Origin: an uncultured Chloroflexia bacterium | Lineage (GTDB): Bacteria; Chloroflexota; Anaerolineae; Anaerolineales; Anaerolineaceae | Length of the DNA: 32,000 bases | NCBI GenBank assembly: GCA_963704755.1 | Contig: OY969938.1 | Span: 1,110,001 to 1,142,000 of the forward strand | Reading direction: 5' to 3' | Shown: piece by piece, positions 1-19,908 of the stretch | Layout of the letters: each line of letters opens with the position of its first letter | How positions within the stretch are numbered: position 1 is the stretch's first letter | Made by a program: the position numbers and the translations under genes | Notes under the pieces: model-generated | Databases searched by the model: none | Told to the model about the DNA's origin: nothing | What the model saw: only the letters and a program-made list of their open reading frames with translations

Positions 1-1859
1 AGATCGATGTACGGCAGGTTTTTATCCCCGCCTACGTCCATGGTCCGCACGATCACGGGATGGTCTTGGCCCATGGTGGAAAAGATCTTGTGCAAGAGCT
101 CGTACTGCTCCTGCTCGCTGGGCGCCGTCTCGCGGGTTAGGAACAGAAATTCGGTGCGCAGCAAGCCCACCCCTTCAGCGCCGTTTTCCAAGGCCACCGC
201 GGCGTCGTTGGGTCCGCCGATGTTAGCGAAGACTTCTACCCGGCTGCCATCGGCTGTTTTGGCCAGGTCTTTGCTCAGGTGAAGCAGACGCTCACGCTCA
301 GCTTGCCAGCTTGTCCTCAAATCGCCGAGCGAAGATTGCACCTTCCCGGATGGATCGACCCAGACTTCACCGGTGAAACCGTTCAAGCCGACCATTCCAC
401 CGGCCGGTTGGTGTGCTAAAAACATGCCGCTCCCTGCCACGGCCGGGATCCCCAGTCCTCGGGCCAGGATCGCGCTGTGCGAAGTCGGCCCGCCGCCGGC
501 GGTGACGATGCCCAACACCTGGCGCATATCGAGCTGTGAGGTCTCGGTGGGGGTCAAATCTTCCGCGTACAAAATGACCGGCTGGGGGAAAGTCAGCGGG
601 GCCGCTGCGGGAGCGCCGCTCAGGGCCAACAGCACCTGCCGGCCGACATCCTCCACATCCAGCGCGCGCTGTTTTTGATAAGGATCATCCAGCGAACGAT
701 AAGTATCGGCGACCGTATTTACGGCCGCGTCCCAGGCCGCGGCGGCATTCAACTGGTTCTTGAAGATACCGTCGTTGGTCCGGTCGAGCATGTCCGGGTC
801 CTGCAGAATGAGCTCGTGGGCTTCAAAGATCGCAGCTTCATCCGCGTTCAGTGTCCGTTTGACCTGCTCGTAGCGCTGTGAAATATCCTGGCGGGTTGCT
901 GCGACCGCTGCCTGGAACTTCTTCCATTCAACATTGGGATCTTTGGCCGGCTCTTTCGAGATCGTTGGCCGGGGCGGCTCGTAACGATACAGCGGACCCA
1001 GCGCGTACCCCTCCGAGATCGGCACAGCACGCAGGTAGTTCGTGCTTTCAGACGATTTTTGCACCGGCTCAACCGGTATGGCCGGTAAGGGTGTTTTGGC
1101 CGGCTCTGCCGGTCCGGGGACAGCCGTTGGTTCGCCAAAGCCCGATTCGACCAGTTCCTTGAGCGCTTTCAGCGCCTGCGCTGCTTCATCGCCGCTGGCA
1201 TCGATGCGGATCTGATGATTCTGCACCGCTCCCAGAGTCGCAATCGCATTCAGGCTGCGGGCCGAGGCCGGGCCTTTTCCGTTGGTCTCGTTCTTTACCT
1301 GGATATCGGCCTTGAAACGGGTGGCCATCTGGACAAACCGCGCTGCCGGCCGGGCGTGCAAGCCGTGTTGGTTGATCAGAGTCACCGTCACCAATTCTTC
1401 CGCCGGTAAAGGTGCAGGGGCGGCCGAAACCGTTTCGCCAACTTCCGCTGCGTCGCCTAGTTGATCCTGCTTGGGGAATAGCGACTGGCGCGCTTCCTGG
1501 TAAACCATTTCCAGCGGGCTGCCCAGGCTGATTTGAACCCCGGCAGCAACCGCGCCTTCCACAAGCGGCGCGGAACAAAAACGAACCTTCTCTCCTATTT
1601 CGGGCGGCAGCAGGTCCAGCGCCATTTGAGCGCTAAGCACTGCGCTGCCCAGGTCCATCAATACCAGTACGCCATCCTGCGAAGATACCAATTCGATGGC
1701 TTCCATGATCTCGATGGCATCCGTACCAAATGTCTGGCGATCATCCCCCACTCCAGCCGCCAGGGCAATAGGCGCTGTAGGTGAAGCTACCTGCTTGACC
1801 AGGTCAACCAGGGCTTGGGCCAATGGACGGCTGTGTGAAACAATAACCAAACCAACCAT
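1..1859 (-). CDS. dhaM: PTS-type dihydroxyacetone kinase phosphotransferase subunit DhaM, a multidomain protein (EIIA-Man-like + HPr-like + Enzyme I-like). The C-terminal end runs off the left edge of the window.
   Basis: Absent from the ORF track because it is edge-truncated. My own translation starts at ATG 1859 (GGAG 6 nt upstream). It gives MVGLVIVSHSRPLAQALVDL (DhaM/EIIA-Man His), LINQHGLHARPAARFVQ (HPr-like His), GGGPTSHSAILARGLGIPAV (EI phospho-His), then GVGLLRTEFLFL and RTMDVGGDK (EI PEP-binding domain). The frame stays open to base 1. Confidence 0.9.
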   Translation of the reverse strand, partial: MVGLVIVSHSRPLAQALVDLVKQVASPTAPIALAAGVGDDRQTFGTDAIEIMEAIELVSSQDGVLVLMDLGSAVLSAQMALDLLPPEIGEKVRFCSAPLVEGAVAAGVQISLGSPLEMVYQEARQSLFPKQDQLGDAAEVGETVSAAPAPLPAEELVTVTLINQHGLHARPAARFVQMATRFKADIQVKNETNGKGPASARSLNAIATLGAVQNHQIRIDASGDEAAQALKALKELVESGFGEPTAVPGPAEPAKTPLPAIPVEPVQKSSESTNYLRAVPISEGYALGPLYRYEPPRPTISKEPAKDPNVEWKKFQAAVAATRQDISQRYEQVKRTLNADEAAIFEAHELILQDPDMLDRTNDGIFKNQLNAAAAWDAAVNTVADTYRSLDDPYQKQRALDVEDVGRQVLLALSGAPAAAPLTFPQPVILYAEDLTPTETSQLDMRQVLGIVTAGGGPTSHSAILARGLGIPAVAGSGMFLAHQPAGGMVGLNGFTGEVWVDPSGKVQSSLGDLRTSWQAERERLLHLSKDLAKTADGSRVEVFANIGGPNDAAVALENGAEGVGLLRTEFLFLTRETAPSEQEQYELLHKIFSTMGQDHPVIVRTMDVGGDKNLPYID

Positions 1860-1877
1860 TTCGTTCTCCAGCGGGTT

Positions 1878-2252
1878 TTATTGCGCTGCAATCGTCAAAG
1901 CAAGCCAAATACCGTAAATAACAGCGCCAACTCCGACCAACCCGAATAACCAATTGATAAATATGAGTAGTCCCCTGGAAGGGTTCATGTCCAGAATAAT
2001 GCCGCGTAATCCCAGTAAGGAATGGGTGACAACCGCGGCCAAAAAGGTGATTTCCATGGCGACGATCCAGGGATTGCTGAAATAGTTAACTACGTCCTGG
2101 TAATCGAGCAAACCGTTCTCGGCCACCAGGTGGTTGACGATCATGTGCACGAAAAGCAGAATCACCAAAAGCGGTCCGGTGACCATCTTGATAAACCACA
2201 GCCAGGCCGTTTCTCCTTTGCGCGGAGCAGATACATTTGAAAGTTGAGTCAC
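1878..2252 (-). CDS. Small 3-TM membrane anchor, SdhD/FrdD-like (complex II-type hydrophobic subunit)
   Basis: 124 aa with a GTG start preceded by GAGGAGG. It has three hydrophobic helices with His residues (FVHMIVNH, VVTHSLLG). It lies directly downstream of an SdhC-like and an SdhB-like gene, with a 10-nt gap. Confidence 0.7.
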   Translation of the reverse strand: MTQLSNVSAPRKGETAWLWFIKMVTGPLLVILLFVHMIVNHLVAENGLLDYQDVVNYFSNPWIVAMEITFLAAVVTHSLLGLRGIILDMNPSRGLLIFINWLFGLVGVGAVIYGIWLALTIAAQ

Positions 2253-2262
2253 AACAGCCTCC

Positions 2263-2655
2263 TCAAGCAGTGATCATTTTGACTGCAAAGACCAGGATGA
2301 TAACCACTGCCAGTGCCATCAGGCCAACGAACAACTGTTTCTGGCGGGTCACGCTCACACCAAAACTGGTGAGGACGATACGGATACCGTTCAGCCCGTG
2401 GATAAACACCCCGGCAACGACCAGCAATTCACCGGCCAGGAAAATTGGGCTTTTGGCCATTTTGATAAAAGAATCGTACGCGGCAGGCCCCTGGGCCAGT
2501 TTACTCAGCACACTGAGGTGGAGAAACAGGTACAAGGTTAAACCAATGGCTGTGAGACGGTTAAGGATGAACCCCACACCACCAGTCTGGCGTCCGACGG
2601 GATTGAACCAGCTCCAGAAGCGGGAAGCAGAAGGCCGATTGATTTTGTTTTCCAT
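2263..2655 (-). CDS. Small 3-TM membrane anchor / cytochrome b-like subunit, SdhC/FrdC-like
   Basis: 130 aa with three predicted TM helices and conserved-looking His (LFLHLSV, FIHGLNG). It sits 22 nt downstream of the SdhB-like gene. Confidence 0.7.
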   Translation of the reverse strand: MENKINRPSASRFWSWFNPVGRQTGGVGFILNRLTAIGLTLYLFLHLSVLSKLAQGPAAYDSFIKMAKSPIFLAGELLVVAGVFIHGLNGIRIVLTSFGVSVTRQKQLFVGLMALAVVIILVFAVKMITA

Positions 2656-2677
2656 AATCTTTTCCCTGGTGTTGGAA

Positions 2678-3406
2678 TTATCCGCGACCGAATAACCCCT
2701 TGAATTTTTTGACTACGACCTGCGTCCGCAGAGACATTATCCGCCGGCCGGGATCGACAAATGAAGGGCAGACCGCGGTACATTCGAACGCGCTATGGCA
2801 GCGCCACAAGCCGTCCTCCGAATCGATCACGTCCAGCAGTGTGTGGCTGCCGTTCAACCCGTGGGCGTGGGCCCCGGCCAGAACGGCCGGCCCCAGGTAT
2901 GAGGGAGTTGTCGAGGAGACCGGGCAGGCGCTGATGCACAGCCCGCACTCGATGCAATCGCTCAAGCGGATATACTGCTCTTCTTCTTTGTCCCATTTCG
3001 AAGGCGGCTTCTCGACCTCGGATTGAGTGACCGGCGCTACGGTCGGTGCGGTGACTTCGTCCATCTTCAAATAGAGCGAGCCCATATCTACGGTCAGGTC
3101 GCTGACGATGGGGAAGTTGCGCAGCGGTTCCACCACAACCGTGCCGCCGTTCTCGGTTACACTGCGGATGGGGGTGATGCAGGTCAACTTTTCGACATGG
3201 TTGACGCGCATTCCACAGGCGCCGCAGGTGGAGTGGTGGCAGGCGTGCCGGAAACACAAGGTGCGGTCATGGAAAGCCCAGATCCGCTCCACAGCATCTA
3301 AAACGTACTCGTCCGGGTCAACTTCCAGGGGAAATTCATCGTAATGAGGAGTCTCATCTTCTTTCAAGCGAAAGACGCGAAAAGTTACGTTCCATTGTTC
3401 AGTCAT
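2678..3406 (-). CDS. Succinate dehydrogenase/fumarate reductase-type iron-sulfur subunit (SdhB/FrdB family)
   Basis: 242 aa with AGGAG 7 nt upstream of the ATG. Full SdhB-type cysteine patterns are present: CHHSTCGACGMRVNHVEKLTC (C-x4-C-x2-C-x11-C, 2Fe-2S), CIECGLCISACP (4Fe-4S) and CHSAFECTAVCP (C-x5-C-x3-CP, 3Fe-4S). Confidence 0.88.
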   Translation of the reverse strand: MTEQWNVTFRVFRLKEDETPHYDEFPLEVDPDEYVLDAVERIWAFHDRTLCFRHACHHSTCGACGMRVNHVEKLTCITPIRSVTENGGTVVVEPLRNFPIVSDLTVDMGSLYLKMDEVTAPTVAPVTQSEVEKPPSKWDKEEEQYIRLSDCIECGLCISACPVSSTTPSYLGPAVLAGAHAHGLNGSHTLLDVIDSEDGLWRCHSAFECTAVCPSFVDPGRRIMSLRTQVVVKKFKGLFGRG

Positions 3407-3416
3407 GATTCAACTC

Positions 3417-4583
3417 CTAATTCGGGCTAGCGTAATATTGTCGGAAGGAAAGCAGTTTGATCTCTTTCGTGCTGCAAGCCGCCTGAATTCCGAGTTTCTC
3501 ACAGACCACGTCCGCCGTCTTTTCAGCCATCGCCCGCAATGTCGTTGCCTTTCCTCCGGTAATGGTCACCAGGCCTTCGATATTATGGAGTTCCTTGTGG
3601 TCGTAACATTTGAACGTACGCGCGATACTCCGGCCCAGGCCACCCCCAATCAACGGACGGCTGGCCATGTAAATACCGCGAGGTTTCGCGTTTTTGATCG
3701 CCGGGATCAATTCACTGCCGCGCTCCAGCATGAGCTGGGCTTGTTCTTCAACAACCGGGACATAGTCCAGGTCTTCCACCTCGAATGAAGTCGTCCCCAC
3801 CACCACCATCCGTCGCTGCGGCAAGACGATGTCGCCGTCACCGGGTTTGTTCAAGCGGTTGATTGCCCGCTGGACAAAGCGCTGGTCGTAGGCCACCATA
3901 ATGCCAGGCGTGGGTTTGATCGGCACACTGGCCCCGGCCATCTCGGCAATTTCCCCGCTCCAGGCGCCGGTGGCATTGATCACGATATCCGCGTGCAAAT
4001 CCCTGGTTTTATTATTGGTGCGGTCCAGGACCTGGATGCCCACCACATTGCCCTTGCCATCCAAAATCATACCGGTGACATTGGTATAGGTTTGGAACTT
4101 TGCTCCGTTCGACTTGGCCGTGGCAGCGAACGCCAGAGCCAGGCGTAATGGGTCAAATGTGCCGTCTGGGATTATAAATGCCGAAAGGACCTGGGGGTTG
4201 ATGTTAGGCTCCAATTCCAGAGCCTTTTTCCCGTCGATTTGTTCAAGTGGGATGTGGCAGGCCTCACAACCTTCGATGAAGGTTTCTGCATAGGCCAAAT
4301 CATTGTCATTCAAGGCTATAAATAATCCACCGTTAGGCTCGATTACATCTGGTACGATCTTGCGCAAGATCATATTTTCGTCGATACATTCGATCGCCAA
4401 TTCCTGGTCTTTGACTGCGTACCGGCCCCCGCTATGCAAAAGTCCATGAGTCCGACCGGAAGTGCCATTGCAAATATCTCCACGTTCAACAACGGTCACG
4501 TCAAAACCGCGTAGTTGCAAATCATGTGCGGTGGCGACCCCGGTGAACCCTGCCCCAATGATGATCGCTTTTGGTTTTGTCAT
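3417..4583 (-). CDS. glpA: FAD-dependent glycerol-3-phosphate dehydrogenase, GlpA-type flavoprotein (short form without the C-terminal BFD-like domain)
   Basis: IIIGAGFTGVATAHDL (GxGxxG) and GRTHGLLHSGGRYAV match my recollection of the E. coli GlpA N-terminal ~390 aa. I place the start at ATG 4583 (GGAG 9 nt upstream); the track begins one codon earlier at TTG 4586. Confidence 0.88.
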   Translation of the reverse strand: MTKPKAIIIGAGFTGVATAHDLQLRGFDVTVVERGDICNGTSGRTHGLLHSGGRYAVKDQELAIECIDENMILRKIVPDVIEPNGGLFIALNDNDLAYAETFIEGCEACHIPLEQIDGKKALELEPNINPQVLSAFIIPDGTFDPLRLALAFAATAKSNGAKFQTYTNVTGMILDGKGNVVGIQVLDRTNNKTRDLHADIVINATGAWSGEIAEMAGASVPIKPTPGIMVAYDQRFVQRAINRLNKPGDGDIVLPQRRMVVVGTTSFEVEDLDYVPVVEEQAQLMLERGSELIPAIKNAKPRGIYMASRPLIGGGLGRSIARTFKCYDHKELHNIEGLVTITGGKATTLRAMAEKTADVVCEKLGIQAACSTKEIKLLSFRQYYASPN

Positions 4584-4612
4584 CAATTACTACTCCAATT
4601 TCCTGCAATTAG

Positions 4613-4625
4613 ATTTTTTTTGCGG
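4613..4625 (-). promoter_or_regulatory. Conserved 13-mer CCGCAAAAAAAAT (read on the minus strand), 30 nt upstream of the glpA-like start codon; copy 1 of 2
   Basis: An identical 13-mer occurs at 7045-7057, 31 nt upstream of the glpK start codon. Function unknown. Confidence 0.4.
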
Positions 4626-5100
4626 AAACATACCGCGCTTCCTCCAATCCAATTCGATAATGCTCCTTTAATGATGGTTTACCGCTGGAGGCGGCCGTCC
4701 GGCTAAATTGAAAAAATGGGCGTATACAGGGATTGTTCTTTCGCCCCATGTACTCCCATCTTTCAACTCAGGCGTCTTACGATTTTTAATTAATTTTACC
4801 AAACTTAATCTATTTGCGAATACTTGCGGATTTACCAGGGTCAAGGCCACAAATCGGGGTCGAAGTTCTCTCTGGCCGTACTTCGACTTGCACAATATTT
4901 TCCCGCCCTGGCGATTTCGGGAAACCCTGCCTGCGTTCTCCACTGAACATATTCTCATCGTTACCGCACGTTATGAACCGTGATGGAAGTGTTTTTGCTG
5001 GGTATACGGAGGATTTTCAGTGCGTTCATGTGCATTAATTCACAAAAATGATATAAAAAAACGAACATCACTTTCGAACGGCCGTCTTGGTTTCACGAAA

Positions 5101-5352
5101 TTAGCGGCGAACAACCCGATTGAAGAGTAATAAGCCAAAGAAAATGGCCCAAATAAATACACCAAATGCCAGCCCCCATAAAATACCTTCCAGCCAACCC
5201 AGCGCAGGGACAGTCTGGAGAGAAGTAACCACTGCCATGAGCACACTGACCACTGCAATCACTTTGACGCCTATCGACATTTTAATCCAGGGTTTCGGTT
5301 GTGAAAGATCGGCTACCTTTTCCTTTACTTTCTTTTTGGAACTCTTGGACAT
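5101..5352 (-). CDS. Small hypothetical membrane protein (83 aa, Lys-rich N-terminus, 2 predicted TM helices)
   Basis: The internal ATG at 5352 is preceded by GGAGG (MSKSSKKKVKEKVADL...). Two hydrophobic segments follow. No family recognised. Confidence 0.5.
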   Translation of the reverse strand: MSKSSKKKVKEKVADLSQPKPWIKMSIGVKVIAVVSVLMAVVTSLQTVPALGWLEGILWGLAFGVFIWAIFFGLLLFNRVVRR

Positions 5353-5454
5353 GCTAAAACCTCCAGGAGGACAATTCAGTCCGGGCCAAACCATAACCTT
5401 TATAAACGTTCAAGATGTACTGCAGGAAAGAACTCGACATCATCTGGAAAGAGA

Positions 5455-5517: not shown

Positions 5518-7014
5518 TTAGTCGATCCAATCGAAGGTGCGCGTAACGGCTTTCTTCCAGCCTTTGTACAGTTTTGCGCGTTCTTCGGCGCCCATCTTGG
5601 GCTCCCATTCTTTATCCTTACCCCAGTTCACGCGCAGGTCGTCGATTTTGTTCCAGAAGCCGACGGCCAGGCCGGCTGCGTATGCGGAGCCGAGGGCGGT
5701 GGTTTCCGCCACGGTCGGGCGAATAACCGGCACACCCAGGATATCGGATTGGAATTGCATGAGCATTTCGTTGAAGACCATACCACCGTCTACCTTGAGG
5801 GCAGTCAGCGGCACACCCGAATCGGCGTTCATGGCATCCAACACCTCGCGGGTCTGGTAAGCGGTGGCTTCCAGGGCAGCGCGGGCGATGTGATTCTTGT
5901 TGATGAAGCGGGTCAGGCCAACGATAGCGCCACGGGCGTCACTCTTCCAGTACGGTGCAAATAGACCGGAGAAGGCCGGGACGAAATAGATACCGCCGCT
6001 ATCCGGGACAGCGCCCGCATATTCCTCGATGTGCTTGGAGAAATCGAAGAATTTCAGGTTGTCACGCAGCCACTGGACCAACGCACCGGTGATGGCGATG
6101 GAGCCTTCCAGGCAGTACACGGCCGGCTGATCGCCGATCTTGTAACCCAGGGTGGTCAGCAAACCGTTCTTGGATTGGACCGGTTTTGTGCCCGTGTTCA
6201 GCAGCATGAAGCAGCCGGTGCCATAGGTATTTTTGGCTTCGCCAGGATCGAAGCAGGTCTGCCCAAACAGGGCCGCCTGCTGATCGCCCAAAATACCGGC
6301 AACGGGGATGCCGCTCAGTGAACCGATGGCTTTGCCGTATACTTCGGCTGATGGGCGGATGCGCGGGAGCATCGCTTTGGGAACACCCATGATCTTCAGG
6401 ATTTCTTCGTCCCAATCCAGGGTTTCCAGGTTCATCAGCATGGTGCGGGAAGCGTTCGAAACGTCAGTAACATGCACGCCGCCGTTCGGTCCGCCGGTCA
6501 AATTCCAGACCACCCAGGAGTCGATATTTCCGAAGAGAACCTCTCCCTTTTCAGCTTTTTCACGTACGCCAGGTACATTATCCAGAACCCACTTGATCTT
6601 GGGGCCGGAGAAATAGGTGGCCAGAGGCAGACCTACTTTTGCGCGGAAGCGATCCTGTCCCCCGTCTTTGGCAAATTCATTGCAAATCGCGTCGGTGCGG
6701 GTATCCTGCCAAACGATGGCATTGTATACCGGTTTGCCGGTCGCACGATCCCAAAAAACCGATGTTTCGCGCTGGTTGGTGATACCAATCGCAGCGATGT
6801 CTTTCGGATCAATGCCGGTCTTCTTTAAGGCCCCATCAATGACTTCTTGAGTTCGCTGCCAGATCTCCAACGGATCGTGCTCAACCCAACCTGGTTTCGG
6901 GAAGATCTGCTCGTGTTCCTTTTGGTCAACGCCTACCACTTTCCCAGAGTGATCAAAAATCATGAAGCGGGTGCTGGTGGTACCCTGATCTACTGCGGCA
7001 ACATATTTAGCCAT
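5518..7014 (-). CDS. glpK: Glycerol kinase
   Basis: 498 aa. [40 protein letters not shown] and GTGCFML are classic GlpK/FGGY motifs. Full length. Confidence 0.97.
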
Positions 7015-7044
7015 TTAAACACTCTCCTAAGGGGTACTTGACGA

Positions 7045-7057
7045 ATTTTTTTTGCGG
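7045..7057 (-). promoter_or_regulatory. Second copy of the 13-mer CCGCAAAAAAAAT, 31 nt upstream of the glpK start codon
   Basis: Identical to 4613-4625 in sequence, orientation and distance to the downstream ATG. Confidence 0.4.
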
Positions 7058-7100
7058 TGAATAGCATGGAAGACGATTTTTCCAGATACGATTGGCGTGC

Positions 7101-7128
7101 AAAAGAAGCTGGGGAAAATGCCAGCTTC
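7101..7128 (-). terminator. Candidate intrinsic (possibly partial) terminator between dhaL and glpK
   Basis: The minus strand reads GAAGCTGG-cattttcc-CCAGCTTC-TTTT, starting 12 nt after the dhaL stop. The stem is 8 bp and the U-tract is short. Confidence 0.45.
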
Positions 7129-7139
7129 CTTTTATTGAT

Positions 7140-7775
7140 TTAAGCCTCTTTCCAGGTCTCTGCAGCGGTCTTTAGGAGTAAATACGAGGACGTCGCACCC
7201 GGGTCCTGGTGACCGGCACTGCGTTCACCCAGGTAACTGGCCCTTCCTTTTCGCGCAACCCAGGGAATGGTCGCCAGCATTCCTAGCCTGGCTGCTTCAG
7301 CGGATTGTTCGAGGGCGGTATTGAGGGGTGCGTTCGCAGCCAATGATTCTTTGAGGGAATCAACTGCCGGGAGCAGGGCATCGACCATGGTCTTATCCCC
7401 GGGCTCCGCTTTTCCGCGCATCACCACGCCGCTCAGCGCGGCTTCAAGTGCCTCGGCCCAATCCTGCAGATTCAGTTCCATTTTGCCCGCCGACTTCATG
7501 CCGGCCTGTAAGAAGAACGTTCCGTATAACGGCCCGCCTGCACCACCTACGGTAGAGAGTAAAGTCATCCCTACGGTTTTGAAGATAGTGCCGATATCCT
7601 TATCACTGTTCTCGGCCAGTTTGATCACCACGGCTTTAAAACCGCGATCCATGTTCGCTCCATGATCGGCATCGCCGATGGCTGCGTCCAGTTCGGTGAG
7701 ATAGGTTTTGTTCTCAGCAATGACTCCGGCGCTAGCGCGGACCCATGCCAGGATATCGTCTCGATGAATACTCAT
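7140..7775 (-). CDS. dhaL: Dihydroxyacetone kinase, ADP-binding subunit DhaL
   Basis: 211 aa. LDAAIGDADHGANMDRGF is the DhaL/Dak2 nucleotide-Mg motif, and GGAGGPLYG is also present. It lies adjacent to dhaK. Confidence 0.95.
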   Translation of the reverse strand: MSIHRDDILAWVRASAGVIAENKTYLTELDAAIGDADHGANMDRGFKAVVIKLAENSDKDIGTIFKTVGMTLLSTVGGAGGPLYGTFFLQAGMKSAGKMELNLQDWAEALEAALSGVVMRGKAEPGDKTMVDALLPAVDSLKESLAANAPLNTALEQSAEAARLGMLATIPWVARKGRASYLGERSAGHQDPGATSSYLLLKTAAETWKEA

Positions 7776-7796
7776 ATTGGGCTCCGTAAGACCAGG

Positions 7797-7823
7797 CCAG
7801 GGTGACCCAAAAGATCACCCTGG
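7797..7823 (-). other. Intercistronic hairpin between dhaK and dhaL
   Basis: CCAGGGTGA (7797-7805) and TCACCCTGG (7815-7823) form a perfect 9-bp stem with a 9-nt loop. Confidence 0.4.
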
Positions 7824-7838
7824 CTTCGTACGCTAAAA

Positions 7839-8840
7839 CTATATTCCCCAGCGCAATCCCGGGGTTTTGACGGGGGCATCCCACAACTTGATCATTTCGT
7901 CGTCCATCTTGAGCATGGTAATGGACACGCCGGCCATTTCCAAACTGGTGATGTACGGCCCAATCAGGTTACGCACTACTTTGAGGCCATGCTTTGCAGC
8001 AATTTCGGCCGCTTTGCGGTACACAATGTAGAGCTCGATCAATGGCGTCCCACCCATGCCATTGACGAACAGGAGCACATTGTCGCCTGATTTGTAGGGG
8101 ATATCGCTGATGACAGGTTCCATCAACATTTCGGTGATCTCGTCAGCCGTCTTCATGGCCATCCGAGTCCGACCCGGCTCGCCATGAATGCCGATGCCGA
8201 TTTCGATTTCGTTCTCCGGCAGATCGAAGGTTGGTTTACCCACATGCGGAACCGTGCAGGAGGTCAACGCCATACCCATGCTGCGGCCCAATTCCTTGAC
8301 CTTCGTGCAGACCGCTGCGACTTCTTTCAAGGAGCGCCTTTCTTCAGCGGCCGCGCCGACTAACTTTTCTGCCAATACCGTGCTGCCTACACCACGGCGA
8401 CCGGCTGTATAGAGGCTATCTTTTACGGCCACATCGTCGTCGATGACAACACTTTCGATTTCGATACCCTCAGACCGGGCCAGGTCGGCTGCCATTTCGA
8501 AGTTCATGATATCGCCAGTATAGTTCTTGACGATATGCAGCACGCCCTTGCCGCCGTTGACGGCTTTGGTCGCTTCGAGCATTTGATCCGGAGTAGGGGA
8601 AGTAAACACCGCGCCAGGGCAAGCCGCATCCAACATACCCATCCCGACGTATCCGCCGTGCATGGGCTCGTGGCCAGAACCACCGCCGCTAACAATCCCC
8701 ACCTTTCCCATTACGGGAGCATCGGCGCGCACGATGTAATTGGGATCGTAATGCACTTTAACCAAGTTCGGGTGTGCAATTTCGATACCCTGGAGCTCTT
8801 CCAGGACCACATCCTCGGGTTTGTTGATCAGTTTTTTCAT
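7839..8840 (-). CDS. dhaK: Dihydroxyacetone kinase, DHA-binding subunit DhaK
   Basis: [12 protein letters not shown]..., [15 protein letters not shown] and [13 protein letters not shown] closely follow my recollection of E. coli DhaK. I chose the start at ATG 8840 (AGGAGG upstream). The track ORF starts 7 codons earlier, at 8861. Confidence 0.95.
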
Positions 8841-8891
8841 GAATTTATTACCTCCTGCCAACGGAAAGCTTGACTCGTACGGAATTATTGG

Positions 8892-9665
8892 TTATTTGTT
8901 GGGCAGAAAAGCGGTAACGAACCAGTCATACGTAAAGACACCAACTACACCACCCACGATAGGCCCAACAATCGGAATCCACCAATAGCCGCTCGAGAAC
9001 AGGCCAGTCGTACCGGCTAAAGCACCAAAAATACGAGGTCCTAAATCACGGGCAGGATTGATGGCGTATCCGGAGGGGCCGCCCAGGCTCAGGCCAACCG
9101 CCAGAACAGTGAAGCCCACCAGGAATGGGCCAAGGTTGTGCATCAAACCAGTGTTGCGAGAATCGCCGCTGGCTAAAACGCCCCACAAAAGTACAGCCGT
9201 GCCGATAAGCTCGGTCAAGAAGGCGGTCAAGAAACTGTAGCTGCCGGTAGAATTTGCCGATGCAGCACCCCAAAACGAAGCACCAAAAACAGAACCTGGA
9301 CCAGTTGCCCAGACATTTGGCATGCCAGCCGCAACCAAACCATCACGGTAGACAATGTAAACTGCTGCCGCGCCCAAGAAAGCGCCGATCAATTGGGCTA
9401 AGATGTAGGGCAGTACTTTGCCCCAAGGGAAATTGCGTTTTACTGCCAGGCCAACGGTAACAGCCGGGTTAAGGTGAGCACCAGAGACGCCCGCCGAGAC
9501 ATAAACGGCCACAATAACCGCGAACGCCCATCCGATAGTAATGGTGTTCCAGTTATAAGCTGTTCCGGCCAAGCGCGGAGCTAAGCCAACGTTTGCGACA
9601 ACACCGTCACCTAACAGGATCAAGATAAAAGTCCCAAAGACTTCGCCGACAAACTGTCCGAACAT
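8892..9665 (-). CDS. glpF: Aquaglyceroporin / glycerol uptake facilitator (MIP family)
   Basis: 257 aa with six hydrophobic segments and two NPA boxes (HLNPAVT, INPARD). It sits in a glycerol-gene context. Confidence 0.93.
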   Translation of the reverse strand: MFGQFVGEVFGTFILILLGDGVVANVGLAPRLAGTAYNWNTITIGWAFAVIVAVYVSAGVSGAHLNPAVTVGLAVKRNFPWGKVLPYILAQLIGAFLGAAAVYIVYRDGLVAAGMPNVWATGPGSVFGASFWGAASANSTGSYSFLTAFLTELIGTAVLLWGVLASGDSRNTGLMHNLGPFLVGFTVLAVGLSLGGPSGYAINPARDLGPRIFGALAGTTGLFSSGYWWIPIVGPIVGGVVGVFTYDWFVTAFLPNK

Positions 9666-10019
9666 GTTTTTTCTCCTTGTTTATTCTGGGGTAATACAGA
9701 TCGTACAAAAAACATTGGACCAACTGGTAACCAAGCTCTTTACGATAAGCCCTCCTTTTTCCAGAAAAATAGGTGAAAATAGAACCAATTACTCAGGATA
9801 ATGGCTAAGGAATAATTAAATTTTTCAAGAAGACTGCTATTTTCCGATGTTTTTTGTCAGAATTCACCATTTATCAGGCAGCAGAACTTCAAAATATGAA
9901 ATCGACTGAAGAATATAACCCGCTTTAACCCCCTCAGGTATGCTGGTTAATCATTAGGTAACTATCCCACATTTCTCTCCCGTTGAGTTTGTAGATTGAA
10001 TAATTACACTACATTTTAT

Positions 10020-10059
10020 ATTCTACGTAAAGGTCCCCGGAATTGCAACTTACTTGCCT
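10020..10059 (-). promoter_or_regulatory. Promoter of the glpF-dhaKL unit. Two readings overlap: sigma70 (-35 TTGCAA 10043-10048, 17-nt spacer, -10 TAGAAT 10020-10025) and a sigma54-like -24/-12 element AGGCAAGTAAGTTGCA (10044-10059).
   Basis: Read directly on the minus strand. The GG-N10-GC spacing is exactly that of TGGCACG-N4-TTGCW. The same TTGCA also serves as a -35 with ideal spacing to TAGAAT. Confidence 0.55.
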
Positions 10060-10069
10060 AATTGTGTAT

Positions 10070-10113
10070 CATTTTGAAACAGTTTGAATAGAGCACTGTC
10101 GCATTTTGAAACA
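10070..10113 (-). promoter_or_regulatory. Two direct copies of the 12-mer TGTTTCAAAATG (10070-10081 and 10102-10113), a candidate activator (DhaR-like) binding site
   Basis: The repeat is an exact 12/12 match with a 32-nt period (about 3 helical turns). It lies just upstream of the promoter elements and just downstream of the regulator's stop codon. Confidence 0.5.
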
Positions 10114-10137
10114 CTTGTTTCGCGTCACCTTTCATCT

Positions 10138-12180
10138 TCATAAAACTATCTGGGCTTCCACCGGATGGCGATAGTCAGCCGGGTCGATGGCAAGCGACTT
10201 CATCCGGCGCCATAAGGTCGTCCGGCTCACACCTAAAATATCTGCCATGCGCGACACGTTGCCGCGGCACAATTTGACCGTGCGCAAGATGGTCTCTTTC
10301 TCCACTTCGTCCAGCGAGGATAATTGAAAATCCGGATCCTCCGGCAGATTGCTGCTGGTCGTCAGACGTAGATATGCCGGCAGGTCTTCGACGTTGATTA
10401 CGCCATCCTGCCCAACCTGCATGACCGTCCGCCCGATGACCGCTTCGATCTCGCGCACGTTTCCCGGCCAATAGTATTTTTTCAGCACATCGATCACGCC
10501 CGGCTCCAGGCTGACTTTGTAGCCCGTCTGGGTGGAGAAGCGCTTCAAAATTCTGTCCACCACCTCGGGAATATCCTGCGGACGGTCGCGCAAGGGCGGC
10601 AGCGTGATCGAGAATACGCTCAGGCGGTAGAGCAGGTCGGATCGAAAACTTTTTTGCTTGATCAGCTTCTTCATTTCGACAGCCGTCGATGCGATGATAC
10701 GGCTGTCCACCTTGATCGGCCGGCTGCTGCCCAAACGCTGTACCACGCCCAGTTCCAGCACGTTTAGCAGAATGGTCTGCGCTTCCAGTGGCAAAGCGTC
10801 CACGTCCTGCAGGAAGAGCGTCCCACCTTCGGCCAGCTCGAATTTACTCGGCCGGCTGCTGGTCCGTTTTTCAAGGAAATTCTCGTCGTACCCTAAAAGT
10901 TCAGGCAAGACCAGTTCGTTGGGGATGGAGGCGCAGGCGAAGATCACGAAAGGGCCATCCCGGTTGGCGCTAAAGTTGTGAATGGCGCTGGCCAGAGCAT
11001 TCTTACCCGTCCCGGGCTCGCCGTGAATCAAAATACTGGCCTTGGCCGGCGCGGCCACCCGCACCAAACGCCGCACGTGCAGCATGGCCGGCGAATTACC
11101 CGGAATATCTTCCAGCGTCAGGGCCGCGCTGGCGCCGATCTGGTGATGGACGAGCTGGCGCACTTCCTTCACCGGGCGCAGGGTGGCGATAATCCATTGC
11201 AGCTCGTCCCCGTTGTACACATAGCGGATGCTCATGATGGTGTTGACGACGTGGCCCTCGACCGTCAGGCGTACCTCCCGGTCGGTGACGGCGGTACGGT
11301 TGCGGATCAGGTAATCCAGCGAGGGCTGCAGGTTCATGAAAGCGTCGATCGGTTTGCCTAACAGCGACTTGGCCGGGGCGCCCAGGAGTTGGCTGGCCGA
11401 AAGGTTCGCATGCATGAGAACGTTGCTTGAATTCCAAACCAAGATGCCCTCGGATATGGCCGACAGTACTGCATTCAACTCGGCCAGGTTCGAGTTCTGT
11501 TCCCGCATCAATACGTCCGCCTGCTGTTGGCCTTCGATGGCTTTGGCGGTCACTGTCGCCAGCCCCAAAGCATAGGGATGATATTTTTCCCACAGGGTAA
11601 AGATGCCTACCACCCCCAGCGGATGCCCGGTCAGGTCGAACATGGGGGCGGCTGCGGTACCGAACTGGTGAAAGGCCTGCACGTAATGCTCGTAACCAAC
11701 CACCTGAACCGGCATGCGCTCGGCCAACGCCAACCCGACTGCGTTGGTGCCGACCAGTTCCTCGGTCAGGATGGCCCCTTTCACCACCCCGCAAGCCTCG
11801 AGCGATTCGACCATGTCGCTGTCGCCGTAAATATTCAAGACACAGCCGGCCGTATTGGCGAACAGGATCGCCGTGGAAGTGTTTTCCCCATTCTGCTGAA
11901 CATCTTCCAAAATTGGCAGGGCCACCGAAAGCAGGTCAAAACTGACCAACTGCGATGAAAACAGGTAATCCTCGTTGAGGTGGACCGAGCGGGCCGGTTG
12001 AAATGGATTTACTTTTGCCCAGCAGCGTTTCCACGACCTGGCGATAATAGGCTGCACGCCGGGCAGGAGCTGCTGTTTATATACAAATGCTTTCCATTCC
12101 CCTAAGAACTCTTCCTCACTTTTTCCAGAACTTCCATTTTCTATGGCTAACTGGGGTAGGAGAGTGATAGAAGGTTTCAT
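10138..12180 (-). CDS. dhaR: DhaR/AcoR-like transcriptional activator of the bacterial enhancer-binding protein family (N-terminal GAF/PAS-like sensor, AAA+ core, C-terminal Fis-type HTH). The GAFTGA loop is not conserved.
   Basis: 680 aa. It has Walker A GEPGTGKN, Walker B/sensor GGTLFLQDV and the R-finger region RSDLLYRL. WPGNVREIE and the C-terminal HTH VSRMADILGVSRTTLWRRMK are also present. The symbol is assigned from context only. Confidence 0.8.
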   Translation of the reverse strand: MKPSITLLPQLAIENGSSGKSEEEFLGEWKAFVYKQQLLPGVQPIIARSWKRCWAKVNPFQPARSVHLNEDYLFSSQLVSFDLLSVALPILEDVQQNGENTSTAILFANTAGCVLNIYGDSDMVESLEACGVVKGAILTEELVGTNAVGLALAERMPVQVVGYEHYVQAFHQFGTAAAPMFDLTGHPLGVVGIFTLWEKYHPYALGLATVTAKAIEGQQQADVLMREQNSNLAELNAVLSAISEGILVWNSSNVLMHANLSASQLLGAPAKSLLGKPIDAFMNLQPSLDYLIRNRTAVTDREVRLTVEGHVVNTIMSIRYVYNGDELQWIIATLRPVKEVRQLVHHQIGASAALTLEDIPGNSPAMLHVRRLVRVAAPAKASILIHGEPGTGKNALASAIHNFSANRDGPFVIFACASIPNELVLPELLGYDENFLEKRTSSRPSKFELAEGGTLFLQDVDALPLEAQTILLNVLELGVVQRLGSSRPIKVDSRIIASTAVEMKKLIKQKSFRSDLLYRLSVFSITLPPLRDRPQDIPEVVDRILKRFSTQTGYKVSLEPGVIDVLKKYYWPGNVREIEAVIGRTVMQVGQDGVINVEDLPAYLRLTTSSNLPEDPDFQLSSLDEVEKETILRTVKLCRGNVSRMADILGVSRTTLWRRMKSLAIDPADYRHPVEAQIVL

Positions 12181-12201
12181 TTTTATGGGTTCGCGTTTAA
12201 C

Positions 12202-12729
12202 CTATGCGTGTGGGTTGGCAAATGCAGCGACTAATTCACGACAGAAATCGGGGATATCGGCCACAACCCGTCCCCACACGAGGTTGCCCTCGCGGAAGGC
12301 CGGCTGGTCCACCCAGGTAGCTCCGGCGTTGACCAGGTCATCCTTGATTCCCTTCGATCCGGTCGCCTTATGTCCGTCAACGATGTGAGACGAAATCGCG
12401 ACCAATCCGGCATGGCAGATGATCCCGATGATCTTGCCCTGCGCGTTCATTTCATGGACAAAATCAGTGACGACGGGATAGCGGCGCATCTTATCCGGCG
12501 CCCAACCACCCGGGATGACCAACCCGTCCATTTCGTGCGGGTCCAGGTCTTTCAACTCAACGGTCGGTGTAATAACCAGACCGTTCTTACCGCGAACCGG
12601 TTTCAAATCTACGCCGGCCGCAAAGACCTGGGCGCCTTCTTCTTGCAATCTCATCATCGGAACGTAAAACTCAAGATCTTCTACGCCCTCAGCGAGTAAA
12701 ATGACAATTTTTAATCCAGATAGTTTCAT
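12202..12729 (-). CDS. DJ-1/PfpI family protein (class I glutamine amidotransferase-like; possible glyoxalase III/deglycase)
   Basis: 175 aa. The nucleophile elbow IGIICHAG and PGG are present, and the size is typical of the family. It ends 21 nt upstream of the dhaR-like start. Confidence 0.85.
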   Translation of the reverse strand: MKLSGLKIVILLAEGVEDLEFYVPMMRLQEEGAQVFAAGVDLKPVRGKNGLVITPTVELKDLDPHEMDGLVIPGGWAPDKMRRYPVVTDFVHEMNAQGKIIGIICHAGLVAISSHIVDGHKATGSKGIKDDLVNAGATWVDQPAFREGNLVWGRVVADIPDFCRELVAAFANPHA

Positions 12730-12749
12730 TGTTGTTTAACCTCACTAAG

Positions 12750-12778
12750 ATTATAAACAAAGATGATAAAAATTGCCA
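12750..12778 (-). promoter_or_regulatory. Candidate sigma70 promoter for the DJ-1/dhaR-like pair (-10 TATAAT 12750-12755, -35 TGGCAA 12773-12778)
   Basis: The -10 hexamer is perfect, the spacer is 17 nt, and the -35 is weak. Confidence 0.3.
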
Positions 12779-12826
12779 TGCGATTTTAGCGGGAATATGT
12801 CCAACCGGCCTCTCCCCAGCCCAAAA

Positions 12827-13630
12827 TTAATCTCCGTGGCCGTGTTCGCGCTCGACGATGCCGATGTGCTTATCGTGGTCCTGCATCACCAATACAATCC
12901 CAAAGGTCTCCAGTAAGGCTTCCGGGGTAAGGATATCCTGACCGGGACCGAAAGCGATCACCTTTTTCGCCAACAGCATGGCGTAGGTACATTCGGAAGC
13001 CTGATGAATGTCGTGGGTAGCGATGACCACCATGGCGCCCCGGCTGAGCTCTTCTGACAGTGCCTGGTCGAGCGTTTCCTGCCCGGCAGCGTCCAGCCCG
13101 GCCGCCGGTTCGTCCAGGATGATCAGGTCGGCCTGGCGGGCCAACACCTGGGCCAGATATGTGCGCTGCTGTTGACCGCCCGAGAGCGAGCGCAGCGGGG
13201 CATCTTTTAAGGCTTCGATTCCCATGCGCTGCATCGAACGGTGGATGATCTCCTCATCCGTATGGTCCATGCGTCCAAACAGTCCCTTCTTCGAAAAACG
13301 TCCCATGCGAACCACATCGATGACCCGCAGCGGCAGGATAAAACCGGAGGAATGGAACTGGCTCAGGTAAGCCAACTGGTCGGCATTCTTACCCGGCAGC
13401 CGCCCGAACGCCCCAATCTCGCCGTGGACCGGGGGCAGCAAGCCAACGATCGTTTTCAATAGCGTCGTTTTTCCAGACCCGTTGACCCCGACCAGGGCTA
13501 ACGATTGGCCGCATTCCAGCTCGAAATTGATATCCGGGACGATGATCTCATTGTTGTAGCCAATATCCAGGTGGCTGACACGCAGACAGGCATCCTGGCC
13601 AGAAAATGATGAAGGGCTGTGATCGCTCAT
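12827..13630 (-). CDS. Metal (Zn/Mn/Fe-type) ABC transporter, ATP-binding protein
   Basis: 267 aa. It has Walker A GVNGSGKTT, signature LSGGQQQR and Walker B LIILDEP, plus a His-rich C-terminus. Its start overlaps the upstream permease stop (ATGA). Confidence 0.9.
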   Translation of the reverse strand: MSDHSPSSFSGQDACLRVSHLDIGYNNEIIVPDINFELECGQSLALVGVNGSGKTTLLKTIVGLLPPVHGEIGAFGRLPGKNADQLAYLSQFHSSGFILPLRVIDVVRMGRFSKKGLFGRMDHTDEEIIHRSMQRMGIEALKDAPLRSLSGGQQQRTYLAQVLARQADLIILDEPAAGLDAAGQETLDQALSEELSRGAMVVIATHDIHQASECTYAMLLAKKVIAFGPGQDILTPEALLETFGIVLVMQDHDKHIGIVEREHGHGD

Positions 13631-14475
13631 TGGGTTGGCACCCCACCCCGCGCAGCAGCCGGTGACTTCAAGTTCTGGAAGGTGAATACCACAAAGAACA
13701 GCAGCGTCGCTACTAAAACGATCGCCGATCCGGCTGCCAGGTTGAAATGATAGCTGATCAACAGGCCGGCATAGACCGAAAAGGAGCCGAAAACCGCCGC
13801 CCAGGTAATCATGGTTTCGATCCGCCGGGCGATCAACGCACCCGCACCGGCCGGCGCCAGCAGCATGCCAAACACCAGCAGTGTGCCCACCGTCTGGAAG
13901 GAGACGATAACCGTCAGCGAGATCAACGCCAGCATGATGTTATGGTACAGGTTGGCCGAGAAACCGGCCACCTGGGCCTGCTCCGGGTTGAAGCACAACA
14001 GCAGAAACGGCCGCATACACACCACAGCCGTGATCAAGATCAGGATGGTAGCCACCAGTTCGATCAGGATAGAGGATTGACTCACCCCCAGGATTTCACC
14101 GAACAGCACCTGGACGATATCGCCGGTAAAGGTATTCGAGCGCGAAACGATCACCACGCCTAACGCCAGCATGCCCACGAAAAGCAGGCCAATGGCGATG
14201 TCGAAGGAAAGCCGTGAACGCCGCGTGATCAGGCTGATGCCGCCGATCATCACCACGGCCCCTACGGCCGCCCCAATGATACCGGGAATGCCCAGCAGGA
14301 TGGCCGCGGCGATGCCGGGCAGCACTCCATGAGCCAGTGCGTCGCCGATAAAGGCCAGTCCGCGCAGCACAATAAAAGTACCCACAATGCCGCACGAGAT
14401 CGAAACCAATATGCCGGCAATCAAAGCATGCTGCATGAACGTGTTGGTTGTAAACGGAGTAATAAACCAGTCCAT
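13627..14475 (-). CDS. Metal ABC transporter permease (ZnuB/MntB/TroC family, ABC-3)
   Basis: 282 aa and polytopic. DALAHGVLPG is the typical ABC-3 motif. Confidence 0.9.
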   Translation of the reverse strand: MDWFITPFTTNTFMQHALIAGILVSISCGIVGTFIVLRGLAFIGDALAHGVLPGIAAAILLGIPGIIGAAVGAVVMIGGISLITRRSRLSFDIAIGLLFVGMLALGVVIVSRSNTFTGDIVQVLFGEILGVSQSSILIELVATILILITAVVCMRPFLLLCFNPEQAQVAGFSANLYHNIMLALISLTVIVSFQTVGTLLVFGMLLAPAGAGALIARRIETMITWAAVFGSFSVYAGLLISYHFNLAAGSAIVLVATLLFFVVFTFQNLKSPAAARGGVPTQ

Positions 14476-18994: not shown

Positions 18995-19025
18995 TTGACA
19001 AGAGATTGTGCTTGGCGCACAATCT
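18995..19025 (+). promoter_or_regulatory. Candidate sigma70 promoter (-35 TTGACA 18995-19000, 17-nt spacer, -10 CACAAT 19018-19023) with an overlapping operator-like inverted repeat
   Basis: The inverted repeat is AGATTGTGC (19003-19011) / GCACAATCT (19017-19025). A third half-site, ACAATCT, is at 18974-18980. Confidence 0.4.
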
Positions 19026-19127
19026 ATCTTGGATCATCCGATAGCGACCTGTACTATCTTAGCGGATGCAACGGCATTGAAAGCAAATGTAATCTGGTCT
19101 CTGCTGACAGTCTTCCCGGAGGTACAA

Positions 19128-19871
19128 ATGGATAAATACTTTGGTGAGTGGGTTCCATATTCAGGAACTAGCGCCATCATTCTTGGGGTTGTTTTGCTGG
19201 TGATTGCAGGTGTTTTCACTTTATTGGGCTTTAAGCTAAAAAAACCCTTAAGGGTAAAACAACCTGGCAAGGCAGCAGGAGGAATGACGATCTTCGTTTG
19301 GATTCTTTCCATCCTGACATTTCTTGTAAATGCAGGCATCTATGCGCTGCTGATGCAGCAGGCAAAATTAACGGGTACTGTACCAGCTAATCCAATTACG
19401 AAATTTACACTATCGTTTGCATTCTTAACTTTCTTAATAATCTTTCAAATCAATGTAAAGAAAGATGCAAAGGCAGGTTTCTGGGCTGCGGCGCTTGCAG
19501 CTATGGCTGGACCTATGGTTTTTGAATTACCTTTTGACCTGATTGTTATGGGCAGGACTTTTCCCCCTATTCCCCCGGATCCTACGGCTTTACGTGTCTT
19601 ATTTTTCTTTCCTCTTTTCCTGACAGAGCTAACCACGATATCTCTATTGTTCTTTTCTCCACTTTTTAAAATTACTAAATATTCTCTATACAGCTTGGCC
19701 GGCATGTTTTTCGTATTTGCAATTTGGGGGTTCTTAAGCTTTTCGTTTGCCTACACGACAGAATTTCTCGTTTTCAATGTAGTTGCCAAAGCCCTGGCCT
19801 TCCTTGTGGTTGTCACGCTCTTTCTTCCACAGAAATTTATGGACTCAAAGCTGCCGGCCGGATTGTCGTGA
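19128..19871 (+). CDS. Hypothetical polytopic membrane protein (about 7 TM segments), in a lower-G+C gene
   Basis: I place the start at ATG 19128 (GGAGG 5 nt upstream); the track ORF starts 40 codons earlier. Hydrophobic helices run throughout. No family recognised. Confidence 0.65.
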   Translation: MDKYFGEWVPYSGTSAIILGVVLLVIAGVFTLLGFKLKKPLRVKQPGKAAGGMTIFVWILSILTFLVNAGIYALLMQQAKLTGTVPANPITKFTLSFAFLTFLIIFQINVKKDAKAGFWAAALAAMAGPMVFELPFDLIVMGRTFPPIPPDPTALRVLFFFPLFLTELTTISLLFFSPLFKITKYSLYSLAGMFFVFAIWGFLSFSFAYTTEFLVFNVVAKALAFLVVVTLFLPQKFMDSKLPAGLS

Positions 19872-19908
19872 AATCTATCGGTGGACAAAAAACATGGCCC
19901 AAATAAGG

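Follow-up and report, generated by a model that had tools for sequence, protein, structure and literature searches.

The 32,000-nt stretch analysed here (the window; positions 1,110,001 to 1,142,000 of contig OY969938.1, assembly GCA_963704755.1, from an uncultured Chloroflexia bacterium of the Anaerolineaceae) carries on its minus strand four adjoining genes, glpA', sdhB', sdhC' and sdhD', which we consider quite probable to encode a single membrane-bound glycerol-3-phosphate (G3P):menaquinone oxidoreductase of the "GlpA-SdhBCD" type. We also think it likely that this enzyme represents the bacterial archetype of a separate and widespread class of respiratory G3P dehydrogenases, in which a flavoprotein of the DAO family would sit in the place of SdhA on the iron-sulfur (Fe-S) subunit and di-heme "wire" of a complex II. 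Domain composition, cofactor-ligand motifs, substrate residues, conserved synteny and co-divergence can all be read from the sequences and form the evidence presented here. The four genes are the following:

3417-4583, minus strand: glpA', short flavin adenine dinucleotide (FAD) flavoprotein of the GlpA clade, 388 aa, predicted G3P-oxidising subunit
2678-3406, minus strand: sdhB', iron-sulfur subunit of the SdhB/FrdB type, 242 aa, carrying motifs for [2Fe-2S], [4Fe-4S] and [3Fe-4S] clusters
2263-2655, minus strand: sdhC', Sdh_cyt anchor of 130 aa with three transmembrane segments; His46 (first segment) and His86 (second segment) are predicted heme ligands
1878-2252, minus strand: sdhD', Sdh_cyt anchor of 124 aa with three transmembrane segments and a GTG start; His36 (first segment) and His77 (second segment) are predicted heme ligands

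These genes and dhaM, which comes next, are separated by gaps of only 10, 22, 10 and 18 nt. Five packed minus-strand genes had already been described in an earlier note on this DNA, together with a short GlpA homologue devoid of the BFD domain, an SdhB that keeps its three cluster motifs, two small histidine-bearing proteins with three transmembrane segments each, and the absence of glpB, glpC and sdhA from the window; all of this was confirmed, and two of the checks proposed there, profile searches on the four proteins and a survey of glpA-sdhB adjacency, were carried out and gave the results reported below. The central proposal of that note, that a GlpA-type flavoprotein delivers electrons to quinone through a complex II-type Fe-S and anchor module, is supported comparatively and from sequence, because short GlpAs partition with SdhB' and long ones with GlpB and GlpC, GlpA' and SdhB' have diverged together, the substrate residues are kept and the loci contain no SdhA.

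GlpA' belongs to the DAO family according to the Pfam profile search (E 2e-55). The product that starts at the ATG at position 4583 has 388 aa and is exactly the database protein P0001, while the start chosen by the open reading frame (ORF) finder, the TTG at 4586, would make it one codon longer. Its match to TIGR03377, the model for GlpA, spans positions 2-377 of the 530 in the profile; the score of 432 bits stays below the cutoff of 553 bits because the C-terminal third is missing, and no model other than those for GlpA gave more than 93 bits. In fact, the alignment to Escherichia coli GlpA, with which the flavoprotein domain shares 41% identity (25% in the case of GlpD), showed that the chain stops about 150 residues short of the E. 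coli C-terminus and lacks the Cys-rich tail, its last conserved block lying about 14 residues before the chain end, and no match to Fer2_BFD (PF04324) was found in GlpA'. Accommodating the same end, the AlphaFold2 model (predicted local distance difference test, pLDDT, 90.6) has only a four-residue helix (380-383) after the DAO fold. The best PDB folds for this model were GlpD and GlpO, with template modelling (TM) scores of 0.82-0.86, and the top matches were all G3P enzymes; the score against GlpD normalised to the target was just 0.65 because the C-terminal domain of the target is left unmatched.

Regarding the substrate, residues H50, R54, Y55, R309, R322 and K345 of GlpA' align with H50, R54, Y55, R317, R332 and K354 of GlpD, which we take to be the G3P- and FAD-contacting residues according to the GlpD structures, and the residues aligned with R54, Y55, R317, R332 and K354 (and with H50) are invariant across the short family. 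Conservation of the G3P and FAD contact sites has also been reported by Schmerling et al. 2025 (PMC11962113).

SdhB' contains Fer2_3 and Fer4_8 domains, scored 167 bits against TIGR00384 (dhsB; cutoff 88) and matched E. coli FrdB and SdhB almost equally (E 5e-32 and 9e-32, respectively). All 11 cluster cysteines are present, as C56/C61/C64/C76, C151/C154/C157/C161 and C203/C209/C213, in the patterns CxxxxCxxC...C, CxxCxxCxxxCP and CxxxxxCxxxCP, and all of them are invariant among 53-58 SdhB' orthologues. At the [2Fe-2S] site the subfamily has a signature of its own, R-H-[SA]-C-x-H-x-x-C-G-x-C, where E. coli SdhB reads FRRSCREGVCGSD, and this motif differs from those of E. coli SdhB and FrdB alike. 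Because in complex II the [2Fe-2S] region faces the flavoprotein, the changed motif would fit a changed flavoprotein partner. The first conserved domain starts at residue 7 in GlpA' (DAO) and at residue 8 in SdhB' (Fer2_3), so that neither protein has an N-terminal extension before it and the GlpA'/SdhB' head is therefore likely to be cytoplasmic. The N-terminal domain of GlpC has a homologue in SdhB', namely the ferredoxin domain at its C-terminus (NF008369, E 6e-10; tblastn, E 2e-7), which was the sole GlpC match in the window. Apart from that match, neither sdhA/frdA nor glpB nor glpC was found in the 32 kb when E. coli SdhA, GlpB and GlpC served as tblastn queries and the other ORFs were scanned with Pfam.

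In relation to this domain homology, one locus of the survey described below, L036 (8171-9721), from a Solirubrobacteraceae metagenome-assembled genome (MAG), encodes an SdhB' fused to a CCG domain (Fer2_3, Fer4_8 and CCG in 516 aa), an architecture that resembles TfrB/type E and is intermediate between SdhB and GlpC.

Both anchors matched Sdh_cyt (E 1e-12 for SdhC' and 1e-10 for SdhD'), and hydropathy revealed three transmembrane segments in each of them, with His46 and His86 in SdhC' and His36, His41 and His77 in SdhD'. The best solved relative of both was the SdhC of 6LUM, the Sdh2 of Mycobacterium smegmatis (E 9e-12 and 1e-8), chain 6LUM_C being the best PDB match of SdhC' with the first of these values. 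In Sdh2 the axial ligands are His D107 and His C87 for heme bP, and His D65 and His C47 for heme bD (PMC7447783). In our alignments His46 and His86 of SdhC' fall on His C47 and His C87, and His36 and His77 of SdhD' on His D65 and His D107 of 6LUM_D, the latter alignment being weak (E 0.65). Furthermore, His46 and His86 of SdhC' are invariant in 40-41 sequences, and His36, His41 and His77 of SdhD' in 41. Because all four heme-ligand histidines of Sdh2 align with invariant histidines, we predict that SdhC' and SdhD' form a type A anchor that binds two hemes b and hands the electrons to menaquinone. The electron path that the earlier note had drawn, from FAD through the three clusters to quinone and heme b, would most likely end in the two hemes predicted from the four axial histidines and not in the single heme that the note implied.

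For the comparative survey, one genome per species was scanned for GlpA relatives and 80 loci were kept. A GlpA was considered short when it extended no more than 14 residues past the end of the alignment to GlpA' of the window (63 loci, 60 of them with enough downstream sequence), and long when its tail went on for at least 128 residues past that point (17 primary loci and second copies in loci L015 and L033; two were cut by contig ends, leaving 17 evaluable). SdhB' is encoded directly downstream of the short GlpA in 55 of the 60 evaluable loci, and 37 of these 55 also have both SdhC' and SdhD', with a partial set in 2 more; in another locus, L048, the SdhB'C'D' trio lies just upstream of the short GlpA. 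By contrast, all 17 evaluable long GlpAs have GlpB and/or GlpC after them and none has SdhB' there, GlpB and GlpC were seen beside long GlpAs only, and Fer2_BFD is carried by the long GlpAs of the survey. A homologue of SdhA (E<1e-5) was present neither in 84 loci, with 7-10 kb of flank each, nor in the window, and glpK lies upstream of glpA' in most of the related loci. The full GlpA'-SdhB'C'D' set occurs across the Chloroflexota (Anaerolineales, Thermoflexales, Caldilineales, Ardenticatenaceae, Promineifilum and Limnocylindria), in many Actinomycetota MAGs, including Streptosporangiaceae and Solirubrobacteraceae, and in one Planctomycetaceae MAG. The closest relatives of GlpA' with a source name (75-83% identity) come from Anaerolineales or Bellilinea MAGs.

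In a neighbour-joining tree of the flavoprotein domain (made without bootstrap), all SdhB'-linked GlpAs group in a single clade that excludes the long GlpAs. Moreover, the pairwise distances of GlpA' and SdhB' are correlated (r=0.83 for 57 loci, r=0.90 for a common set of 28), while those of GlpA' and GlpK gave r values of 0.36-0.42, with r=0.42 on the same 28 loci. Such co-divergence of GlpA' and SdhB' is the pattern that obligate partners would show.

We also looked for "Rosetta stone" fusions of GlpA and SdhB, and there were none among the long representatives checked (601-995 aa), which turned out to be GlpA-GlpB fusions, a cytidylyltransferase-GlpA fusion and DAO proteins with extra unmatched sequence.

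Taking these data together, we propose the following mechanism. Glycerol would enter through GlpF and be phosphorylated by GlpK, and the cytoplasmic short GlpA' would oxidise the resulting G3P to dihydroxyacetone phosphate (DHAP) on its FAD. In canonical GlpA the electrons move on to the BFD [2Fe-2S] domain of the same protein and from there to GlpB/GlpC; GlpA' would instead dock on SdhB', whose N-terminal [2Fe-2S] cluster would stand in for the missing BFD cluster. From there the electrons would run through the [4Fe-4S] and [3Fe-4S] clusters to the six-helix SdhC'/SdhD' anchor, most likely with two bis-His hemes b, and finally to menaquinone. DhaKLM would provide a parallel dihydroxyacetone branch, both glycerol branches meeting at DHAP. 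What we infer in this scheme is that GlpA' physically docks on SdhB', how many hemes the anchor carries, which quinone is used and where it binds, and which way catalysis runs. As the midpoint potentials are about -190 mV for DHAP/G3P and about -74 mV for MK/MKH2 (menaquinone/menaquinol), menaquinone reduction by G3P would be exergonic, and it would need no assistance from the proton motive force, unlike what is discussed for succinate:menaquinone enzymes.

An obvious question is whether SdhB', SdhC' and SdhD' could belong to a conventional succinate:quinone oxidoreductase or fumarate reductase with its SdhA/FrdA encoded elsewhere, GlpA' being then a separate and self-sufficient G3P dehydrogenase. 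That SdhB' passes the dhsB cutoff and is called a succinate dehydrogenase/fumarate reductase subunit by annotation pipelines would agree with this, as would the fact that the sdhA search covered the 32-kb window of the source genome. However, it would leave unexplained an adjacency of glpA' and sdhB' that is kept in 55 of 60 evaluable species of several phyla with no SdhA in any of the 84 loci, a co-divergence of the two proteins far tighter than that of GlpA' and GlpK, and a [2Fe-2S]-site motif that is specific to the subfamily and unlike that of E. coli SdhB/FrdB. GlpA' itself lacks both the BFD cluster through which electrons leave canonical GlpA and a C-terminal domain of the GlpD type. 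In addition, Desulfovibrio species presumably own a complete frdABC, which would make their GlpA-linked SdhB' an extra copy. We therefore regard an SdhA partner encoded elsewhere as very improbable. We give even less room to a GlpA' that has drifted to another DAO substrate (L-2-hydroxyglutarate, glycine/sarcosine or proline), which would turn the complex into a different substrate:quinone oxidoreductase. The matched part of the protein reaches 432 bits against GlpA and no more than 93 against non-GlpA models, the residues aligned with GlpD R54, Y55, R317, R332 and K354 do not vary in the short family, only G3P enzymes stand at the top of the structural match list, and the genes around the cluster are glpF and dhaKLM, with glpK directly upstream in most loci. 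Set against this, DAO members are hard to assign from sequence alone, GlpA' falls under the TIGR03377 equivalog cutoff, and glycine oxidase, sarcosine oxidase and L-2-hydroxyglutarate dehydrogenase do appear lower in the fold and sequence match lists.

The remaining alternative concerns the electron outlet: GlpA' and SdhB' might form a soluble or peripheral heterodimer with a non-quinone acceptor, to which SdhC' and SdhD' were added in some lineages or serve mainly as a docking site; strictly speaking, the enzyme would then be no quinone reductase of the complex II kind. Its best support comes from 16 species that have GlpA' and SdhB' and in which no SdhCD-like gene was detected (7 kb of downstream sequence being available in six of them), and from the CCG-fused SdhB' of the Solirubrobacteraceae MAG. 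The 16 belong to the Desulfobacterales, Desulfovibrio/Nitratidesulfovibrio, Spirochaetota and UASB14, plus one Anaerolineales MAG and one Solirubrobacteraceae MAG. For the window such a heterodimer seems very improbable to us, given that both anchor genes follow sdhB' directly here (with gaps of 10-22 nt) and in 37 species, that the four heme-ligand histidines and His41 are invariant, something hard to explain without a redox role, and that the motif for the [3Fe-4S] cluster, the quinone-proximal cluster of complex II, is intact.

Several points weigh against our proposal of a single four-subunit enzyme and should be kept in mind. The correlation of distances can be inflated by a shared history of gene transfer. 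The anchor-less sister group (Desulfovibrio, Spirochaetota) has no SdhCD-like anchor within 7 kb, and for this reason the GlpA'-SdhB' pair can apparently work with other partners or with none. In the window, a spacer of 514 nt lies between glpK with the small ORF that follows it and glpA', so that co-transcription of glpA' with glpK is not assured. Moreover, GlpA is a DAO protein and SdhA belongs to the FAD_binding_2 family, and as they come from different families the docking surface cannot simply be taken over from complex II. The absence of sdhA from the source genome is a result for the 32-kb window. Finally, the GlpA-SdhBCD type is everywhere a prediction from sequence or synteny and no member of it has been characterised.

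Other arrangements were also observed in the survey. The anchor-less sister variant was seen in loci L045, L049, L051-L054, L056-L059, L063-L065 and L067, an example being L063 (6953-8990) of Nitratidesulfovibrio sp. HK-II. Three short GlpAs, those of L055, L062 and L066, group with the long GlpAs in the tree and have no SdhB-like neighbour; in L055 (5089-8146, an Anaerolineae MAG) genes for EtfB and EtfA precede the short GlpA, which hints at a G3P dehydrogenase linked to electron-transfer flavoprotein. In two loci GlpA'-SdhB'C'D' and a canonical GlpABC are found side by side, in L015, a Chloroflexia MAG (333-4730 and 6869-9797), and in L033, a Streptosporangiaceae MAG (6797-9721 and 9791-13769), and because of this coexistence the two systems have distinct roles and are not redundant orthologues.

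The four genes are part of a glycerol operon on the minus strand that, read from high to low coordinates, has the order glpF-dhaK-dhaL-glpK-97-aa ORF-spacer-glpA'-sdhB'-sdhC'-sdhD'-dhaM. Its other elements and the gene upstream of it are:

10138-12180, minus strand: sigma-54-dependent activator with PAS, AAA+ and HTH_8 (Pfam), candidate regulator, directly upstream of glpF
8892-9665, minus strand: glpF, glycerol facilitator (MIP, E 2e-47), first gene of the operon
7839-8861, minus strand: dhaK (Dak1, E 7e-133)
7140-7775, minus strand: dhaL (Dak2, E 2e-55)
5518-7014, minus strand: glpK, glycerol kinase (FGGY_N and FGGY_C), source of the G3P substrate
5101-5394, minus strand: ORF for a small protein of 97 aa with two predicted transmembrane segments, between glpK and glpA'
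4584-5100, minus strand: AT-rich non-coding spacer upstream of glpA', 514 nt, 44% GC
1-1859, minus strand, running off the left end: 5' part of dhaM, EIIA-Man/HPr/EI fusion that donates phosphoryl groups to DhaKL; the tight cluster ends with this gene

DhaM matched EIIA-man, PTS-HPr, PEP-utilisers_N, PEP-utilizers and PEP-utilizers_C in Pfam. A relative with 83% identity has the same operon, from the sigma-54 activator through DhaM, which has 840 aa there. In this relative the activator occupies the same place upstream of glpF and has an N-terminus of the MimR_N type, and the gene order of the window is kept too, in which glpK, the small ORF and the four dehydrogenase genes stand between the dhaK-dhaL pair and dhaM.

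The spacer before glpA' could possibly be an internal promoter site, and a weak hairpin with a T-run is found in it just past the small ORF. It measures 19-760 nt in relatives, and in a Thermoflexales relative it is just 19 nt, so that the block from glpF to sdhD' is contiguous there. A regulatory RNA in the 514-nt spacer was considered and discarded, as there was no Rfam match in the window and the spacer is not kept in relatives. With respect to promoters, no convincing -24/-12 element was found in the upstream regions of the operon: searching for TGGCAC-N5-TTGCW with up to 2 mismatches gave 21 matches, when 18 are expected by chance, and none was well placed. Scans for sigma-70 promoters and terminators gave only consensus-level matches, near background.

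The product of the 97-aa ORF has two hydrophobic segments by hydropathy and no Pfam family above threshold, and homologues occur at the same position in the Anaerolineales and Thermoflexales relatives (L001-L010 and L014); this membrane protein might conceivably be an accessory subunit. Elsewhere in the window, positions 19008-20941 of the plus strand contain two adjoining ORFs of 287 and 286 aa with no Pfam match, in the stretch of lowest GC (about 43%, against about 55% in the rest), which may for that reason be foreign DNA.

The sequence data on this locus thus provide a bacterial member, and evidence of a broad bacterial distribution, of a G3P dehydrogenase type that had already been predicted for an archaeon, and they correct the published picture of G3P dehydrogenase diversity in bacteria. 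The SdhB'-linked type accounts for most of the closest GlpA relatives in the 80-species survey, its members coming from Chloroflexota, Actinomycetota, a Planctomycetaceae MAG, Desulfobacterota and Spirochaetota. If the proposal is true, GlpA-SdhBCD would be a fourth quinone-linked route of G3P oxidation beside GlpD, GlpABC and GlpA-CoxG, the SdhBCD module would be portable between dehydrogenase heads of different protein families, and related versions with other outlets would exist (the CCG-fused SdhB' and the GlpA'-SdhB' pairs lacking a nearby anchor gene). As yet no enzyme of the GlpA-SdhBCD type has been purified, which makes it a tractable target for learning how a DAO-family head docks on the Fe-S subunit of a complex II; if the docking of a non-SdhA flavoprotein on SdhB were shown, the known modularity of complex II would be wider.

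There are also consequences for annotation. SdhB' is named succinate dehydrogenase/fumarate reductase iron-sulfur subunit in the entries P0281, P0305, P0317, P0324 and others, and the short GlpA appears in public annotation merely as "FAD-dependent oxidoreductase". In Chloroflexota MAGs the function of these proteins is probably misannotated systematically, and if our proposal is true, many of the genes called "SdhBCD" in genomes of Chloroflexota and Actinomycetota would not encode succinate dehydrogenase. As a result of the misnaming, reconstructions of Anaerolineae and other MAGs can score a false partial complex II/tricarboxylic acid cycle and miss a respiratory entry of glycerol. Our data point to a menaquinone-linked respiratory use of glycerol in the Anaerolineae, a group often termed fermentative.

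When the system is compared to those already known, the aerobic G3P dehydrogenase GlpD and the G3P oxidase GlpO share with GlpA' the DAO fold and the substrate-contact residues. Each of them works as a single subunit and carries a C-terminal cap domain of about 110-170 aa, and GlpA' ends where that of GlpD begins; GlpD is monotopic and reduces quinone directly, having no Fe-S partners. The anaerobic GlpABC enzymes of E. coli and haloarchaea are closer in that their catalytic subunit is a GlpA orthologue (41% identity) within a membrane-associated, multi-subunit Fe-S enzyme that feeds menaquinone, as predicted for the system of the window. However, GlpA' has no BFD [2Fe-2S] domain and is accompanied neither by a GlpB of the FAD_binding_2 type nor by a GlpC with two [4Fe-4S] sites and CCG domains, and whereas the anchor of GlpABC is a peripheral CCG protein, that of the window consists of integral-membrane, predicted heme proteins. 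The Sdh2 of M. smegmatis (6LUM, type A) resembles it in the three-cluster SdhB, the two anchors with three transmembrane segments and the four axial histidines, and differs from it in the head, which in the window is of the DAO family and not an SdhA-family flavoprotein, and in the predicted substrate, G3P and not succinate. No equivalent of the SdhF of Sdh2 was identified, the 97-aa membrane ORF being unrelated to it in sequence. With complex II proper, the window therefore shares the three-cluster SdhB and the type A anchor and lacks, within its 32 kb, the SdhA, a flavoprotein with FAD_binding_2 and Succ_DH_flav_C domains.

The closest counterpart was found in the literature. The earlier note had recognised two kinds of G3P dehydrogenases, a count that is now outdated, as Schmerling et al. 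2025 (Commun Biol 8:539, PMC11962113), who characterised the GlpA-CoxG enzyme of Sulfolobus, distinguish GlpABC, GlpD, GlpO, GlpA-CoxG, GlpTk-NOX-MOX and GlpA-SdhBCD. The note knew of no characterised enzyme with this subunit composition: no member has in fact been characterised, but the architecture itself had been predicted from synteny for Thermofilum pendens, being drawn as "GlpA-SdhBCD (T. pendens)" in Fig. 9b for Tpen_1127 (PMC11962113). Literature searches gave no published description of it in bacteria, and the same work states that bacterial glpA is consistently found with glpBC (PMC11962113), which is contradicted by our survey. The GlpA of T. pendens "almost entirely lacks a C-terminal extension" and is followed by genes for SdhB, SdhC and SdhD counterparts (PMC11962113). 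GlpA' of the window likewise has no C-terminal extension past the DAO fold, and the gene order glpA'-sdhB'-sdhC'-sdhD' is the same, so that both gene-level features that define the GlpA-SdhBCD type are found in it, as judged from the published description of the Thermofilum system. Unlike the archaeal system, known from synteny and a cartoon, that of the window is bacterial and widespread, and its cluster sits inside a glpF-dhaKL-glpK...dhaM operon.

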